In this document: piece after piece, positions 1 through 11,840 of the stretch | Layout: every line of letters starts with the position of its first letter | Position numbering within the stretch: the stretch's first letter is position 1 | Assembly: GCA_050125095.1 (NCBI GenBank) | Contig: JASFEA010000064.1 | Location: 1-18,290, forward strand | Source of the DNA: a bacterium | GTDB taxonomy: Bacteria > Arandabacterota > Arandabacteria > Arandabacterales > JALGWA01 | Direction: 5' to 3' | DNA length: 18,290 bases | Program-made: the position numbers and the translations under genes | The notes under the pieces: model-generated | Seen by the model: only the letters and a program-made list of their open reading frames with translations | Told to the model about the DNA's origin: nothing | Databases searched by the model: none

Positions 1-660
1 GTGCCGGAATCACTGAAAAGAGCGGCCGAGGAAGCGGCTGGTCGAGGCCAGGCAGCCATCTACATGATTCGGGGAACAAAGGCCCTATCGGTCTTCGCCG
101 TGGCCGACGCCATTCGGGAGGAGAGCCGCGAAGCCGTTCGTGCGCTGCATGACCGAGGTATCGAAGTGGCAATGCTCACCGGAGACGCACAGGCAGTTGC
201 GGATGCTGTCGCCGTCGAACTGGGCATTGATACTGTGTTTGCGCAGGTTCTTCCCGGGGACAAGGCAAATAGAGTGCAGGAACTGCAGCGACAGGGGAAA
301 AAGGTGGCGATGGTGGGCGACGGGGTCAACGATGCCCCCGCCCTGGCAACCGCCGATATCGGGATCGCCATCGGCGCAGGCACGGACGTCGCCGTGGAGG
401 CCGGGCACATAGTCCTGGTCCGGTCCGATCCTCGCGATATACCTCGAATCATCTCCCTGTCCGGCGCCACCTACCGGAAGATGCTGCAGAACCTGTGGTG
501 GGCGGCAGGTTATAACACGTTTGCCATTCCCCTGGCCGCCGGCGTGCTAGCCGCGTGGGGTATCCTGCTTACACCGGCTGTAGGCGCGGTGCTCATGTCG
601 GCGAGCACCGTGGTGGTGGCGATAAACGCTCAGCTTCTCAAGCGGGTGCAATTGAGATGA
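1..660 (+). CDS. copB: Heavy-metal (copper) translocating P1B-type ATPase, C-terminal part (5' end outside the window)
   Basis: MLTGD and [11 protein letters not shown] motifs. The last TM helices carry WAAGYN and MSAST, as in the P1B-3/CopB subgroup. The CPx helix lies outside the window. Confidence 0.85.
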
Positions 661-779
661 CCAAACCCATATTCAATATCAACCGCGCCCCCGTTCTGGC
701 CCTCTGGGGACCTGTTGTGGCAGAAGGGCTCGGGTACGATACCCGACCCGCTCTCTCGCGGATTGACCTGCACGTCTGA
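657..779 (+). pseudogene. Internally deleted, frameshifted paralog of the 2719..3249 gene
   Basis: 657-759 aligns to 2722-2824 ([29 protein letters not shown] vs MTRPIVKINRAPVLTLWGAVVAERLGYDT). From 760 the sequence aligns to 3243 onward (ggattgacctgcacgtctgaatcca vs ggattgatctgcacctctgaatcca). The ATG overlaps the ATPase stop (ATGA). Confidence 0.9.
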
Positions 780-2718: not shown

Positions 2719-3249
2719 ATGATGACCAGACCAATAGTAAAGATCAACCGGGCCCCCGTTCTCACTCTCTGGGGAGCTGTTGTTGCAGAACGGCTCGGGT
2801 ACGACACCCAGTCTGCCCTCTCGCTCGGGAAGGCGCTTTCAGGACTGAACGCCCAGGCCAAGGGCCGGCGACTTGGAATCTTCAATGCGAAGAAAGCCCC
2901 GGACGGCGGGCCGCCCAAAAAGGTTGGTTTAGGCGAGGAGTTCTGGATCGAGCTATGCGGGCGGGGCATCCCTTCGAAGAAGACTGCCGATGGAGTACGC
3001 GCCGTCGTCAAGGACAAGCCCGTGGATCCTGCGGCCGCCCAACGCTATCTGGAGAAGAAGTTCGGCGACGATCTGGACCGTGTGAAATCAGCCATGCGGG
3101 ACCTGGCGGAGTCGCTCGAACCGGAGGATCTTTCCGATCGAGCCTATTCGCTCTATGAGGAGTTCCGTCCCGTGATTCCCAAAGGCAAACGCGGATGGGG
3201 CGCCAAGGGTGATCTCGATCTTGCTCTGATTCGCTCCCTTGCGGATTGA
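2719..3249 (+). CDS. Conserved hypothetical protein (INRAPVLTLW...YEEFRP...GWGAKG motifs)
   Basis: 176-aa ORF with GGGAG RBS and protein-like composition. A diverged second copy of its ends lies at 657-835. Confidence 0.8.
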   Translation: MMTRPIVKINRAPVLTLWGAVVAERLGYDTQSALSLGKALSGLNAQAKGRRLGIFNAKKAPDGGPPKKVGLGEEFWIELCGRGIPSKKTADGVRAVVKDKPVDPAAAQRYLEKKFGDDLDRVKSAMRDLAESLEPEDLSDRAYSLYEEFRPVIPKGKRGWGAKGDLDLALIRSLAD

Positions 3250-3384: not shown

Positions 3385-5565
3385 ATGAAACAGCATTGCT
3401 CTCTCTATCTGATCTGCATCCTCTGCCTGCTGTTGGGATGTTCCGGGGACACAACCACCGGTCCTGATCCTGACGACGGCACATACACGCTGGAGGAGAC
3501 TCAAACCGTCGGAGCGGCGGGAGGCACAATCGAGATTGATGATTTTTCCCTCACGGTTCCGGCCGGGGCTTTCGACGGGGATCATACTCTGAAGCTGTTC
3601 GCCTCGTCTGAAGATCGCCCATTCGACCAGAACCAGGTGACGCGGGCCTTCCGTCTTGTGGGCCTGCCGGATGATTTTTCCTTGCCTCTGCGCCTGAGCA
3701 TCAAGTACGAAGGTACACTCTCCGAAGAGAGTCTTGTCGCCCTGGGAGGACGCTTTTTCGACTATGTTCGGGGCGATTCCGTGACGGCCTTCGGCCCTTA
3801 TGTTGCCTCCGATTCGTCAGGCCACCTGGTGTGTGAAATACCGCCCGATAGCAGCGAGACTATGCGGCCGCAACAGGCTGGCCCTAATGCGACCTTTGGC
3901 CCTTATAGACTGCCTGTGGAGCTCGTGGTAACCGGTCTGACCGGGTATGACACCAGATACATAGATCATTTCTGGATCGCCTTTCCTAAGAACCTCATCG
4001 AGGTTAGCGCGCCTGCAGTCGACGCAATGCTTGAAGAAATCTATACGAACATCACTACGGACTTCGGGTTCGAATGGCCCAGCCAGATACGGCTCAATGT
4101 CTTTGTCGAGGATCTCGGTCCTTCGATAGGTGCGTCCACTTCCTTTGTCATGCGCCATACTCCCATGCTGGCGATAAGCCGGCAGCATCTGAGCCGGGGA
4201 GATTTCACTGCGGTACGCGTGGACGTGGGCAAGCAGCTTCTTTCCTGGATACTGCTTGGCTATGACGAGTCGGGCCTGGACCCCGGGCACTCCTGGCTCT
4301 GGCATGCCATCGTCGCCTGGTCCGAAGAGGTCTTCACCGATGATGCACAGTATGCGTATCCAGGAGCGTTTCCGGGAAATGAGATGGCCCCTTTCAATGG
4401 AATGAAGGCGGGAGCTGGAGATGGCTCTGATGCCGATCAGGACGCTGACCACGGGCATGGCATGTCCGCCGTCATCAAGTGTCTGGTGGATGATAGCGGT
4501 TTCGGCATGGGGGGGATCAAGGCTACATACGAGGCTATCGAGGCCGGTTCCGACCCCGCGGCGGCACTGCTCAATGAAATGGACGCGATCATAACAGAGT
4601 GGTGGCCGGACTTCTTTCGGGATTACGTGGGAGGGGGGATCTACGGCGTCGGCGGCGACGTTTTCACGAACAGCCAGAACCTCTCCGGGACCTGGACTGT
4701 TGACAGTGGAAACGATACCCTTGCGTCCTTCGCCGGCGATTGTCCGGACCTCTCAGCCAATCTCTATCTCGTGAATCTCAGCTATGGCTCATTGGATGAA
4801 TCGGCGAGTTTGATGCTGACACTCACGGGGGAACTCACGACCCCCGTATGCGTAATGGCGTTTCGTGTGGACGGGACTTCTGTCGGCTACCTGGGCAGTT
4901 CAGCCTCTCAGGGTTCCGCGGCTCTGGAAGTCCCGAATCTCAGAGATCTCGTTGCAGGCGGTTTGAGCAAGCTCCTTGTCGTCGCCGTGAACTCTGATGT
5001 CTCGGAGACGTTTCTCGACGAGAGCAATCTAGATCTCGAGATGAAGATACGGACGAAGCCGGCTATTCCCGGATTCGACAGCTTCGACTTCCTGATCAGG
5101 GTCGTAGGTCAATGGCACTATGTCAGCGGGGATTTCACTTCTGATTACGAAGACGAGCTCGAGGAGGAGCCGTGGGGGCTGATTGATGTAATCCCCGGGG
5201 AAATGACAGACGAGACCACGTTCGAAGGGAGCTTCGAATCAGAAGGAGACAGCATAGGAGTGATTGCGACGTTCAGTCCTGAAATGGACAGCGTGCTCAC
5301 GCTCAGTCTGGAGATGACCTCGGAGCCACAGGACGGAAGGCGCTGGTCTCACAGTTTCGACGTCAGGGGTGTTCCGATATCAGATGATCTTGAAGATTGG
5401 GCCTGGTTCCGGGTCGATGGGGCCGCAGCTTGCACTTACCTTGATGATGTCCAGTACATGTATGCCAATCCGTCGGCCGACGAGTCTAGAACGTTGACCG
5501 GGTACTACTGCACCAGCGAGGGCTCATATCCCAGCCTCCTGATACTGCATTTCCATAAGGAATAA
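3385..5565 (+). CDS. Large acidic lipoprotein with N-terminal ZU5-like domain and a possible degenerate zincin-like middle domain
   Basis: AGGAGG RBS and lipobox LLGC. QTVGAAGGTI...LTVPAGAF matches the ZU5-like pattern. The middle region resembles a gluzincin helix pair but has no HExxH. Confidence 0.7.
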   Translation: MKQHCSLYLICILCLLLGCSGDTTTGPDPDDGTYTLEETQTVGAAGGTIEIDDFSLTVPAGAFDGDHTLKLFASSEDRPFDQNQVTRAFRLVGLPDDFSLPLRLSIKYEGTLSEESLVALGGRFFDYVRGDSVTAFGPYVASDSSGHLVCEIPPDSSETMRPQQAGPNATFGPYRLPVELVVTGLTGYDTRYIDHFWIAFPKNLIEVSAPAVDAMLEEIYTNITTDFGFEWPSQIRLNVFVEDLGPSIGASTSFVMRHTPMLAISRQHLSRGDFTAVRVDVGKQLLSWILLGYDESGLDPGHSWLWHAIVAWSEEVFTDDAQYAYPGAFPGNEMAPFNGMKAGAGDGSDADQDADHGHGMSAVIKCLVDDSGFGMGGIKATYEAIEAGSDPAAALLNEMDAIITEWWPDFFRDYVGGGIYGVGGDVFTNSQNLSGTWTVDSGNDTLASFAGDCPDLSANLYLVNLSYGSLDESASLMLTLTGELTTPVCVMAFRVDGTSVGYLGSSASQGSAALEVPNLRDLVAGGLSKLLVVAVNSDVSETFLDESNLDLEMKIRTKPAIPGFDSFDFLIRVVGQWHYVSGDFTSDYEDELEEEPWGLIDVIPGEMTDETTFEGSFESEGDSIGVIATFSPEMDSVLTLSLEMTSEPQDGRRWSHSFDVRGVPISDDLEDWAWFRVDGAAACTYLDDVQYMYANPSADESRTLTGYYCTSEGSYPSLLILHFHKE

Positions 5566-5765
5566 ACGCGTCGGAGGCTCAATCTGCAGGAGTAGATGCG
5601 ACTGACCGGTCAGGGGGGGCTCTATCCCGTTGTTCCTGGTGCCCTACGCCATCTTCTTCCACATGTTGTCGCGGTTGAACTATGCGATGCATGGTCGAAG
5701 GAGTTGAGAACGCGGCGCCGGACCTCAGGAGGATTATAGGTGACCTCCAACGTCGTAACTCTGCA

Positions 5766-5794
5766 TTGACGCAGCGGGGACGGTCGGGCATAAT
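5766..5794 (+). promoter_or_regulatory. Sigma70-type promoter
   Basis: TTGACG (5766-5771), 17-nt spacer, CATAAT (5789-5794), about 145 nt upstream of the GTG at 5939. Confidence 0.55.
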
Positions 5795-5938
5795 CCTTGC
5801 GGCTCAAGGCCGGTACTGGCTGGCCTCGAAGGTCATGCAAACCGTTATACTTCGTCACTTCTCGTCTATCAAGGGGCAAGTCTACGATACAGCAGATCCG
5901 CGGTGATGCGCTGAACGCGCAGAGGAAGGGGGTAAGAC

Positions 5939-6382
5939 GTGGAGAAGAACCGTGCCACCGAATACATGGCCAGTGGTTATGTGTGATCGGAGTCTGTTCT
6001 CCTGGCCGTGTGCCAGGAATTCGGACTCGAGCCGGAGAATGCGGCCATCCCACGAATAGCGTACGGGTTTGCCGGGGGAATCGGCAACACCGGATCCGTC
6101 TGCGGCGCGGTGGCCGGTGGAGTGATGGCCATCGGCCTCAGGCTGGGTCGAGGAGATACGATGGAGGGCATGCTTAAGAACCTGGGCGTGGTGGGGGAGT
6201 TCCGCCGGCGTTTCGAGGCCGAGATGGGACATATCGGCTGCCGCGAGCTTACCGGGCTGGACTTGAGCGCCAAAGAAGACATGGAGCGGCTGGTGAACTC
6301 CGACATTGCGCAGAAGGTGTGTTTCCCGGCGGTCGGTGCAGCCTACAGACTGGCTGTGGAACTTCTGAAAGAGGCGGAATAG
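5939..6382 (+). CDS. C_GCAxxG_C_C family redox protein, probable selenoprotein (Sec at TGA 5984-5986), 147 aa
   Basis: GTG 5939 follows a purine-rich RBS (gaggaaggggg). The frame reads MEKNRATEYMASGYV-TGA-SESVLLAVCQE, matching the family's GYNCAESVL start. Downstream motifs GFAGGIG, CGAVAG, CRELTG and the final Cys are intact. Confidence 0.88.
5987..6030 (+). promoter_or_regulatory. Bacterial SECIS-like hairpin
   Basis: Upper stem TCCTGGC (6000-6006)/GCCAGGA (6012-6018) with loop CGTGT. Lower stem GAGTCTG (5990-5996)/CGGACTC (6022-6028). The loop starts 20 nt after the UGA. Confidence 0.75.
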
Positions 6383-6443
6383 ACGAGCGCCGCGCCGGAA
6401 TGGGGCTTGCGGCCGATTCGCGGGCGTTCTGTAAGGGGAGAAT

Positions 6444-6773
6444 ATGAAAGAAGCATGCCGCAGGGCGGTAGTAGGCATAGGGACAATCGTCAGCCTGGGC
6501 CTCTCCGTCTTGATCGGCTCGTTTTGGGTGGCGAGAGCTCATGATGTAACTCATCCGTTCAGAGGATCGATGATTATTGCCGTCCTTCTCTTTGCAGGGC
6601 CGCTTGCTCTTGTCTTTCTGATCTTCTCCTCCATCACGTCTTTCAGGATTCAGGGCCCCGCCTGGTGCAATGCGACCCTTGCGGGGGTCAATATCATCGG
6701 GGCGATAATAGCGGCGTTACTCAGTCTATTTCTGCTTACGCTTGGACGAATAAGCCTATTCAATCCGGGATAG
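6444..6773 (+). CDS. Small membrane protein, about 3 TM helices, unknown function
   Basis: AAGGGGAG RBS before ATG; three hydrophobic segments; 109 aa. Confidence 0.7.
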   Translation: MKEACRRAVVGIGTIVSLGLSVLIGSFWVARAHDVTHPFRGSMIIAVLLFAGPLALVFLIFSSITSFRIQGPAWCNATLAGVNIIGAIIAALLSLFLLTLGRISLFNPG

Positions 6774-9816: not shown

Positions 9817-11004
9817 ATGAACCTGCATAAATGGTTCTCGCTCCTCTCAAGGCGACAACATGTCTGGCTTTTCGGGACCGCTGCCGCTGTGTTCATTATC
9901 ATGGCCTCCGGTATGTTTGTAAATCCACCCGGTGCGCCCGAGGTAGAGCACGGTTTCAGCATTGAGATGTCGATCAGTGATGTCGCCTCGAAACTTGAGG
10001 TAACAGGGAAGGCCCTTGCCCGCGAACTCAATCTGCCTCTCAATGTTTCCAAGAAAGCCCCCCTGCGCGAACTCGGCGTCAAAGAAGAAACGCTTCGGCA
10101 CGCAGTCCACCACCTTCTTTCTCACCGCGACACCACGTTGAAATACTATCTGTACGTGGCGCTGGTTCTCTGGGGGCTGGTATTCCTTGTCAGGCTGGGA
10201 CGCCCTGATTTGTCGGGTGTCGATCAAAAGGGCCAATGGTACCCTCGACTCCCCTACCTGATCCCGCTCGCCGTTTCGGCGATTGTTGCCGGATTCGCGT
10301 GGGGCAAGTCGCCCAACCCAATGGAAGGGGCAGTGAAGGTATTCAAGTCGATGGTGGGGCTATATCCTGATCCAATGGCGAAAGTGATCGCCCTGCTGTT
10401 CTTCATTGTACTCGCTATAGTCGGAAACAAACTCATCTGCGGCTGGGCATGCCCCTTTGGAGCTCTACAGGAGTTGATATACAGCATTCCGATCCTCGGA
10501 AGGATCAAACAGCGGAAGGTTCCATTTGTGCTGACAAACACGATCCGCGCCGCCCTGTTTGCGGCTATGTTGCTTTTCCTGTTCGGTATTGCCGGCGGGC
10601 AGAAAGGAATGGTCATCTACCATTACGTGAATCCTTTTAATTTATTCAATCTGGATTTTGAGACGCTCAGCATACTGCTGACCGTCATAATCACTCTATT
10701 GGTATCGTTCGTTCTGTATCGTCCGTTTTGTCAGCTCATTTGCCCCTTCGGATTCCTCTCCTGGATTGCCGAGCGGCTCAGTCTGTTTCGCATTCGAATC
10801 GACAAAGATAAGTGCACCGAATGCGGTGCCTGCATAAAGGCATGCCCCCTGGAGGCCGCGGAAGGCCGGGTTTACAGCAGCAAATTACCGGCTGACTGCT
10901 TCAGTTGTGCTCGTTGCTTAAATGTCTGCCCTGTGGACGCCATTCAATACCGGAGCATCTCCAGGGTTAGCAAGGCGAAACAGGTGAGAGAATCTTCGGG
11001 TTAG
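9817..11004 (+). CDS. Membrane 4Fe-4S binding protein (NapH/MauN/RdxA-like polyferredoxin)
   Basis: Multiple TM helices; two CxxxCPxG motifs (CGWACPFG, CQLICPFG); two CxxCxxCxxxCP motifs (CTECGACIKACP, CFSCARCLNVCP). Confidence 0.9.
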   Translation: MNLHKWFSLLSRRQHVWLFGTAAAVFIIMASGMFVNPPGAPEVEHGFSIEMSISDVASKLEVTGKALARELNLPLNVSKKAPLRELGVKEETLRHAVHHLLSHRDTTLKYYLYVALVLWGLVFLVRLGRPDLSGVDQKGQWYPRLPYLIPLAVSAIVAGFAWGKSPNPMEGAVKVFKSMVGLYPDPMAKVIALLFFIVLAIVGNKLICGWACPFGALQELIYSIPILGRIKQRKVPFVLTNTIRAALFAAMLLFLFGIAGGQKGMVIYHYVNPFNLFNLDFETLSILLTVIITLLVSFVLYRPFCQLICPFGFLSWIAERLSLFRIRIDKDKCTECGACIKACPLEAAEGRVYSSKLPADCFSCARCLNVCPVDAIQYRSISRVSKAKQVRESSG

Positions 11005-11075
11005 ATGCACCTTCAGTAAGGTCATTGACATACTCCGGTCGGCGGGTGGAGACTGCTCATGAGAGGAGCTACAGT

Positions 11076-11840
11076 GTGATAAGAAGCTTGGTGCTATTGT
11101 GTTCATTCCTCATCTGTCTTTTGGCGTGTTCTTCTACGCACGAAGTTGAGCCAACAGGGATAATCGCCAGATCAGGGAGCACACCGACAATTGACGGCGT
11201 ATTCGACCCGGGGGAATGGGACGATGCCGAAATCGTGCGGGCAGATACAGTCGAGCAGTTCAGGGTAAAGCACGACGGCGAGAACCTCTATTTCGCTGTG
11301 CGGGCCGGTGGGGGCAACATCCTGTTCGACACAGATTCGGGTGTGCGCGTCCTGCATTGGTCTGCTCAGCTGGGTTCGGCGGAATATGTGAAGTCCGACA
11401 CATCGACTCAACTGCTCGATAGACCTTTTGCCTATGAACTGTGGGGTCTGCAAAACGAGTCACCTGCCGTCATCCGGGACAGCCTTACGAAATACCTGGC
11501 CGAAAACGGCTGGGCGGGGAATACCGCCTCGATGGGCAACCTGATGGAATCAGAACTCGCGATCTCGCTTGACTGGCTGGGAGTAGACACCGGGTCGGGG
11601 CGGTTTGTAGAGCTCCCAGGCGTGCGTATTGGCGCTGGGCTCATGATTGCCAGGGGCGACCCGAGGGGAAAGGAGCTCCTGGCCATGTCCCGCGAGGAGA
11701 TGAAAGAGATGTATCCATCAGTATTCTGGCCATCTGAGTCTCCGCCAAGCGACTCTATAGGTATGGGTGGCGGCCTCCCGGATACCATTCGCGTGGATAA
11801 AGCGGATTACGGCAAGATCTGGATTGATCTTCGGATGTAA
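11076..11840 (+). CDS. Lipoprotein with CBM9/DOMON-like N-terminal motif
   Basis: GAGGAG RBS before GTG 11076; lipobox LLAC; PTIDGVFDPGEWDDA...KHDGENLYFAV pattern. Confidence 0.65.
   Translation: MIRSLVLLCSFLICLLACSSTHEVEPTGIIARSGSTPTIDGVFDPGEWDDAEIVRADTVEQFRVKHDGENLYFAVRAGGGNILFDTDSGVRVLHWSAQLGSAEYVKSDTSTQLLDRPFAYELWGLQNESPAVIRDSLTKYLAENGWAGNTASMGNLMESELAISLDWLGVDTGSGRFVELPGVRIGAGLMIARGDPRGKELLAMSREEMKEMYPSVFWPSESPPSDSIGMGGGLPDTIRVDKADYGKIWIDLRM

Follow-up and report, generated by a model that had tools for sequence, protein, structure and literature searches.

A predicted selenocysteine codon at the first conserved cysteine of a C-GCAxxG-C-C family gene

The window, i.e., the whole stretch of 18,290 nucleotides that was analysed, contains at positions 5939–6382 a reading frame with one internal TGA codon. 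The following features are assigned to this locus, with the basis of each given in parentheses.

5766..5794, + strand: sigma-70-type promoter-like site TTGACG-17-CATAAT, about 145 nt 5' of the start (10 of 12 matches; weak)
5926..5933, + strand: Shine–Dalgarno-like purine run AAGGGGGT, 5 nt ahead of the GTG (sequence; purine-rich runs before most close homologs' starts)
5939..6382, + strand: gene for a 147-aa protein of the C-GCAxxG-C-C family, with residue 16 predicted to be selenocysteine (Sec) (frame, PF09719, homologs' start codon)
5984..5986, + strand: in-frame TGA, predicted Sec16, at the family's first invariant Cys (alignments, conservation, metagenome contigs)
5990..6028, + strand: bacterial SECIS-type hairpin (RNAfold, conservation)
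6008..6010, + strand: GTG (Val24) in the SECIS loop, the gene callers' start of a truncated 124-aa protein (ORF list, homologs)
6101..6103, + strand: Cys55 of the CGAxxG motif, invariant (family alignment)
6239..6241, + strand: Cys101, invariant (family alignment)
6320..6322, + strand: Cys128, nearly invariant (family alignment)

The plain list of open reading frames starts the gene at GTG 6008 and yields 124 amino acids, just as the original prediction had said. Its further claim, that the frame extends upstream to a GTG at 5939 with a ribosome-binding site and is broken by a single TGA, is confirmed by the sequence. The start GTG occupies 5939–5941, the upstream limit of the frame is an in-frame TAA at 5933–5935, and the translation reads VEKNRATEYMASGYV*SESVLLAVC, with the TGA at 5984–5986 and the stop TAG at 6380–6382; the product has 147 residues if TGA is translated as U. 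Most close homologs share the start codon of this frame. Truncation by standard gene callers, which had also been foreseen, is seen both in the 124-aa call in the window and in 60 of the 119 best close homologs, which are likewise short. The promoter-like site may be a chance match (one found, 0.6 expected in shuffles). Region 5400–6700, including the leader of about 145 nt that follows this site, matches no Rfam family up to E 1, and none of the public runs is listed as an RNA source for the gene.

RNAfold of 5984–6045 reproduces all elements of the two-part hairpin described in the original prediction, that is, two 7-bp stems with one G-U pair and a CGUGU loop 20 nt past the UGA. The lower stem pairs 5990–5996 with 6022–6028 and contains the single U-G pair; the upper stem is perfect and pairs 6000–6006 with 6012–6018; the two are separated by a 3×3 internal loop, and the apical loop occupies 6007–6011. 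The energy of the fold is −29.3 kcal/mol (z −3.35), with one of 200 shuffles as good. Candidate bacterial SECIS elements were scored with our own loose script version of the published bSECIS rule, as summarised in the available part of PMC13188914, instead of bSECISearch. Under this rule the hairpin passes with the loop CGUGU at 20 nt, 7 bp and −23.8 kcal/mol. The rule is loose, since it is also passed by 183 of the 1344 TGA codons in the genome at which open frames of at least 250 aa terminate (five of the 1344 as strongly as the window's hairpin); hence, the hairpin by itself is only moderate evidence, and the decisive evidence is conservation. Compared with the E. coli fdhF-type SECIS consensus, as presented in the available part of PMC13188914, the hairpin has the same 5-nt loop with G at the second position followed by U, the same 20-nt spacing and a similar 7-bp upper stem, and its energy is far under −7.5 kcal/mol, whereas the symmetric 3×3 internal loop and the lower stem, poorly kept in orthologs, set it apart.

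Membership in the C-GCAxxG-C-C family is seen from profile matches. The 147-aa product scores 87.4 bits against PF09719 over profile positions 1–117 (cut-off 27 bits), and the 124-aa call scores 71 bits over positions 12–117; the score against TIGR01909, named 'C-GCAxxG-C-C family (seleno)protein' in NCBIfam, is 65.7 bits (cut-off 47.4 bits). The window protein has the four conserved Cys positions as TGA16, C55 (in CGAVAG), C101 and C128. When 120 family members are aligned (A1), the first three of these positions are invariant, C128 is kept in at least 90%, and the consensus around the first is GYNCAESVL, so that the two profile matches and the alignment agree with the proposal that the TGA sits at the first signature Cys of a family starting with this string.

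The close homologs considered here are the best 120 of 1508 matches, or 119 after removal of the window's own entry. Their Sec column contains Cys in 57, Gly in one and Trp in one, while the remaining 60 are truncated before it; i.e., Cys is found in 57 of the 59 full-length close homologs. At least two of the truncations are missed Sec genes, since residues 28–147 of entries P0003 and P0107 match those of loci L038 and L039 exactly, and both loci carry TGA. Residue 24 is Val or Met in all 60 truncated homologs; in the full-length ones Thr dominates and Val is seen in 10 of 59. The GTG of this residue makes up the SECIS loop, and the constraint on the RNA is thus visible in the protein. A fifth conserved Cys, C25, is present in 119 of these 119 homologs. 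The Sec column holds Gly or Trp in P0099, P0106 and one further protein, which reflects either a single-base change from TGA or gene calls made under a code with TGA as Gly or Trp.

With the family at large the window protein has in common the four Cys positions with CGAxxG, a single Sec and a bacterial SECIS within the reading frame; it differs in belonging to a subfamily of about 147 aa that has the additional conserved C25 and stands alone, with no conserved neighbours. A homologous domain is found in the HUGP/GUXX-star fusion selenoprotein, NF045501 (E 2e-15; 57.1 bits against a cut-off of 325), and in the DVU_1555 family, NF045669 (E 7e-15; 55 bits against a cut-off of 103); unlike these, the window protein has no fused second domain.

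Conservation was assessed in close loci at 58–95% identity, of which 17 besides the window remain after exclusion of two duplicates and one locus cut before codon 16. All 17 have TGA at codon 16. The upper stem is 98.4% paired over the 18 rows, and four of its seven pairs never vary; L073 has a compensatory swap of G-C to C-G, which alters the Leu22 codon and replaces Gln26 with Glu, and in three rows a U-A pair has become U-G. Pairing reaches 76% in the lower stem of the close orthologs. The conserved element is the upper stem-loop, not the lower stem. These data bear out the expectation that homologs would keep the TGA together with compensatory stem changes, the latter being one swap and U-G wobbles in the upper stem; the opposite situation, with TGC or TGT and no hairpin in all close orthologs, is excluded.

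Covariation in the 18 close rows is weak, with 26 of 500 shuffles scoring at least as high, because these rows vary little. Synonymous constraint is a stronger test than covariation. All 17 distinct genes share codons 23, 24, 25 and 27, and 16 of them share codon 22; outside codons 16–31, none of the 39 conserved four- or six-fold codons and two of the 22 conserved two- or three-fold codons are invariant. RNAalifold yields no consensus structure for 15 mixed close and distant TGA regions, probably due to shifted stems in the distant forms. When the structure is named for the same 15 rows, no shuffle of 500 matches the pairing and one of 500 matches the covariation, with both values inflated by kinship. 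Public metagenome contigs pile up on 5975–6024. Over 5940–6060, 60 contigs from four public runs have no alternative letter at 5984–5986 or 6002–6024, while third positions around these segments vary; one near-identical contig among the 60 may be the source of the window DNA.

The original prediction implied selA, selB, selC and selD elsewhere in the genome, and all four are present above cut-off in the window genome (G000; 3.35 Mb, 268 contigs, 91% complete). Here, selA is found on contig C6 (561 bits), selB on C113 (380 bits) and tRNA-Sec on C59 (75.5 bits, above the Rfam cut-off), the latter being the only tRNA with a TCA anticodon; selD has two matches (355 and 398 bits), located on C59 and C26. 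The selD gene at C59:10192-11325 (L019, L001) itself has an in-frame TGA at C59:10222, with an 8-bp stem and a CGGGC loop 16 nt downstream, and lies directly 5' of the tRNA-Sec gene. The second selD, on C26 (L018), has no TGA and is part of a 753-aa open frame around 10850–11773 (+ strand), behind a domain that by eye resembles a NifS-type cysteine desulfurase. If this fusion is as it looks, selenium delivery would be coupled to selenophosphate synthesis.

Among other genomes with TGA forms, selA is found in five of the six examined, and selB is above cut-off in six of seven further TGA-form genomes and a partial match in one. Co-occurrence of selA is necessary, not diagnostic: it does not discriminate, since selA is also present in eight of 11 genomes with Cys forms. 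The exception in both the selA and the selB test is the same genome, G041, with neither gene. At its locus (L060:638-1078), which is 78% identical, the TGA is accompanied by a bacterial SECIS; the contig is 2.8 kb long, with an IS481 transposase beside the gene, and G041 is a 1.3-Mb bin labelled as a Thermoplasmatota archaeon; this contig is probably a mis-binned bacterial one. In two genomes of the same genus as the window genome (83% and 93% complete, both with selA), the gene was not found with the window query.

The distribution of Sec was further analysed in a second phylum, that of G045 (Halodesulfovibrio; deltaproteobacterial-type). Among 251 sampled genomes the family is present in 147, with 312 matches, of which 150 are considered here. 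These gave 33 candidates, comprising 20 TGA-flagged matches and 13 that begin at profile position 4 or 5. TGA is seen at the first Cys in 32 of the 33 and at the other three Cys in none, and 31 of the 32 TGA genes pass our bSECIS rule. With at least 32 cases among the 150 matches listed, Sec at the first Cys is, judging from the gene sequences, common in the family. The same rule is passed by 20 of 22 earlier close and distant TGA loci, three of them via a second, weaker hairpin, and by five of 25 Cys-codon homologs, all distant (at most 46% identity). L094 (G422:C30:14461-15120), considered as a Sec form, was rejected: its first site is Cys, its TGA falls at a non-Cys position and lacks a SECIS, and it is either a pseudogene or derived from a recoded genome.

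In a quick tree of residues 28–147 (97 rows, 120 columns), in which 45 of the 92 inner branches are open, close Cys forms fall among TGA forms, which suggests Sec-to-Cys reversions. A distant TGA form, L027, comes from G008, a genome of the same order as the window genome; its database entry P0290, labelled by NCBI as Candidatus Eisenbacteria, is truncated, and a truncation ahead of the first Cys likewise affects 30 of the 120 best homologs of L027.

Positions 5939–6382 very likely encode a 147-residue C-GCAxxG-C-C selenoprotein with the UGA at codon 16 read as Sec. The recoding case as a whole, i.e., a possible GTG start, a conserved stem-loop, Sec machinery and SelB-driven Sec insertion, is highly probable on sequence grounds. 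Translation would start at GTG 5939 and meet the UGA, with the conserved stem-loop 20 nt past it and G at loop position 2; SelA, SelB, SelD and tRNA-Sec would be supplied by the same genome; and SelB with Sec-tRNA would, almost certainly, bind the loop and insert Sec, so that the ribosome could proceed to the TAG that ends at 6382.

Other readings of the TGA have some observations in their favour. Gene callers do start at GTG 6008 or shorten the protein in half of the cases given above (60 of 119), as would be expected if only the 124-aa protein were made and the upstream frame were left untranslated; however, helix 1 and the first invariant Cys are missing from such a protein, its GTG is part of the hairpin loop and is not preceded by a purine-rich site, and residues 1–15 are conserved between TGA and Cys forms, making this reading very improbable. 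Even less probable is that the TGA arose by nonsense mutation, in a pseudogene, or by a fault in the assembly. The fragmented assembly of 268 contigs and the missing match in the two same-genus genomes would fit it, yet it is already refuted by conservation, as 17 other close loci, with identities as low as 58%, retain the TGA in frames that are otherwise intact, 32 distant genes have it too, and the 60 metagenome contigs have no alternative letter. Genome-wide reassignment of TGA to Trp or Gly, to which the single close homologs with Trp and with Gly at the Sec column might point, has a negligible probability: TCA occurs as an anticodon only in a tRNA-Sec, which scores above the Rfam cut-off; selA, selB and the C26 selD match have no internal TGA; and the column is occupied by Cys in 57 of 59 full-length homologs.

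The claim that Sec-containing members of the family have already been annotated agrees with the NCBIfam name and with a 2026 review, the available part of which has C-GCAxxG-C-C form 1 and form 2 with one Sec each and gives no motif (PMC13188914). The available parts of other papers place the family in a table, likewise with no motif (PMC9312934), and report a 'Putative redox protein' with three selenoprotein genes in a deltaproteobacterial symbiont (PMC1976440; Zhang and Gladyshev, 2007). Form 1 was described from the deltaproteobacterial-type group, and first-Cys Sec is common in the phylum of this type sampled here; none of the retrieved protein records carries a U. In Clostridium ljungdahlii, Cys-type members lie beside genes of an aldehyde oxidoreductase and an Fe-S oxidoreductase, according to the available part of PMC5640608. 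In the available parts of some open-access papers naming 'GCAxxG', we found no experimentally tested function of the family, and a term search yields no mention of it in PMC2398784 (text and supplements), PMC5029168 and bioRxiv 2022.07.06.499078. The gene is a further member of a known selenoprotein family, with no new family or recoding mechanism.

For annotation, this means that 60 of the best 119 database relatives, or about half, are like the gene itself called in a form with a shortened N-terminus that misses the first conserved Cys/Sec, and that for many truncated relatives the false start is the GUG of the SECIS loop itself. For biology, the proteins of this subfamily are small and well folded, and Sec and Cys versions about 70% identical exist among them, which makes these a convenient pair for studying the role of selenium at a likely metal-binding position.

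AlphaFold2 predicts an all-helical structure (pLDDT 95.7), where residue 16 begins a helix, C55 lies just ahead of one, and C101 begins another. The top Foldseek match is the split-Soret cytochrome c, 1h21_A (probability 0.99, TM 0.63, E 0.2), and all other matches have probability at most 0.14; in terms of the predicted model, no structure other than 1H21 is a convincing neighbour. This protein, from Desulfovibrio desulfuricans, also comes first with two profiles, at weak E-values (0.0085 and 0.01). The profile match spans GG-x-G-x-CGA-x-G and the helix with the last Cys, so that two of the four Cys, and no more, are aligned to 1H21, also with the second profile. With phmmer, the single protein yields nothing among PDB sequences up to E 10, and a Tat-like homolog used as a bridge to 1H21 gives unrelated weak matches only. 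Four long-frame matches, considered as split-Soret orthologs, were rejected as ordinary family members.

Split-Soret cytochrome c is treated in PMC11492766, PMC8359318, PMC8105010, PMC4429474 and PMC5701242, and its archaeal homologs are reported with predicted Tat signals (PMC8359318, PMC4429474), as far as the available parts of these papers go. Such an export signal is absent from the window protein, where the family domain begins at residue 14 with no N-terminal extension. Further, 1H21 is longer, at 247 residues, and carries two c-type haems, whereas the window protein has 147 residues, no CxxCH haem motif and 17% identity to it. Given that there is no CxxCH and no room for a signal peptide, we read it as a cytoplasmic, haem-less version. 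The PDB title of the 1H21 structure begins with 'A novel iron centre...'; this centre is presumably a cysteine-bound [2Fe-2S] centre in a homodimer.

Based on the model, the product would be an all-helical cytoplasmic protein with the split-Soret cytochrome c fold and no haem motif. By analogy with 1H21, it is moderately plausible that Sec16 and the three conserved Cys bind an Fe-S or other metal centre. Sec16, Cys55, Cys101 and Cys128 might then, with similar plausibility, form one metal site, most likely of the [2Fe-2S] type, in a small redox carrier. Gene context adds no partner: 70 flanking ORFs from 20 TGA loci compared with NCBIfam, and 23 of these compared with Pfam, have none in common, and the window gene's own neighbours are unrelated to it.

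A less probable, although by no means far-fetched, role for the same selenoprotein is that Sec16 acts as a catalytic selenol or binds arsenic or a soft metal(loid), in selenenyl-sulfide redox or detoxification with no Fe-S cluster. Restriction of Sec to the first Cys alone (32 of 33 candidates) suggests one reactive position. Among the best 150 representatives, five are fused to an ArsN2-like arsenic-resistance acetyltransferase, two of them above the NF040501 cut-off, and one to a class I methyltransferase (P0200, P0201, P0232, P0242, P0247 and P0227 for the six fusions), and a GNAT gene adjoins the distant TGA forms L027 and L028. However, there are four conserved Cys in the fold of a protein with a reported iron centre, neither CxxC spacing nor a thioredoxin fold is present, and no ars genes were identified beside close orthologs; twin-arginine-like N-termini, seen by eye in two representatives, fit the export of a bound cofactor. 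The metal-site reading can be extended, tentatively, to the whole group: haem-less C-GCAxxG-C-C proteins would be a stand-alone split-Soret iron-centre domain, with Sec as the first ligand in at least a fifth of the members in some anaerobic phyla. If this were true, they would constitute a widespread natural series of Sec- and Cys-ligated [2Fe-2S] proteins, in which pairs about 70% identical would have switched from Sec to Cys more than once, relaxing the SECIS-imposed Val24.

Elsewhere in the window, the frame 555–779 (+ strand) contains, at approximately 657–758, 34 residues that are 76% identical to the N-terminus of a 176-aa ORF at 2719–3249 (+ strand), which has no Pfam family; judging from the sequence, 555–779 looks like a truncated duplicate of that ORF. 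Two further genes, at 3385–5565 and 11025–11840 (both + strand), encode apparently exported proteins of 726 and 271 aa, respectively, that belong to no Pfam family.
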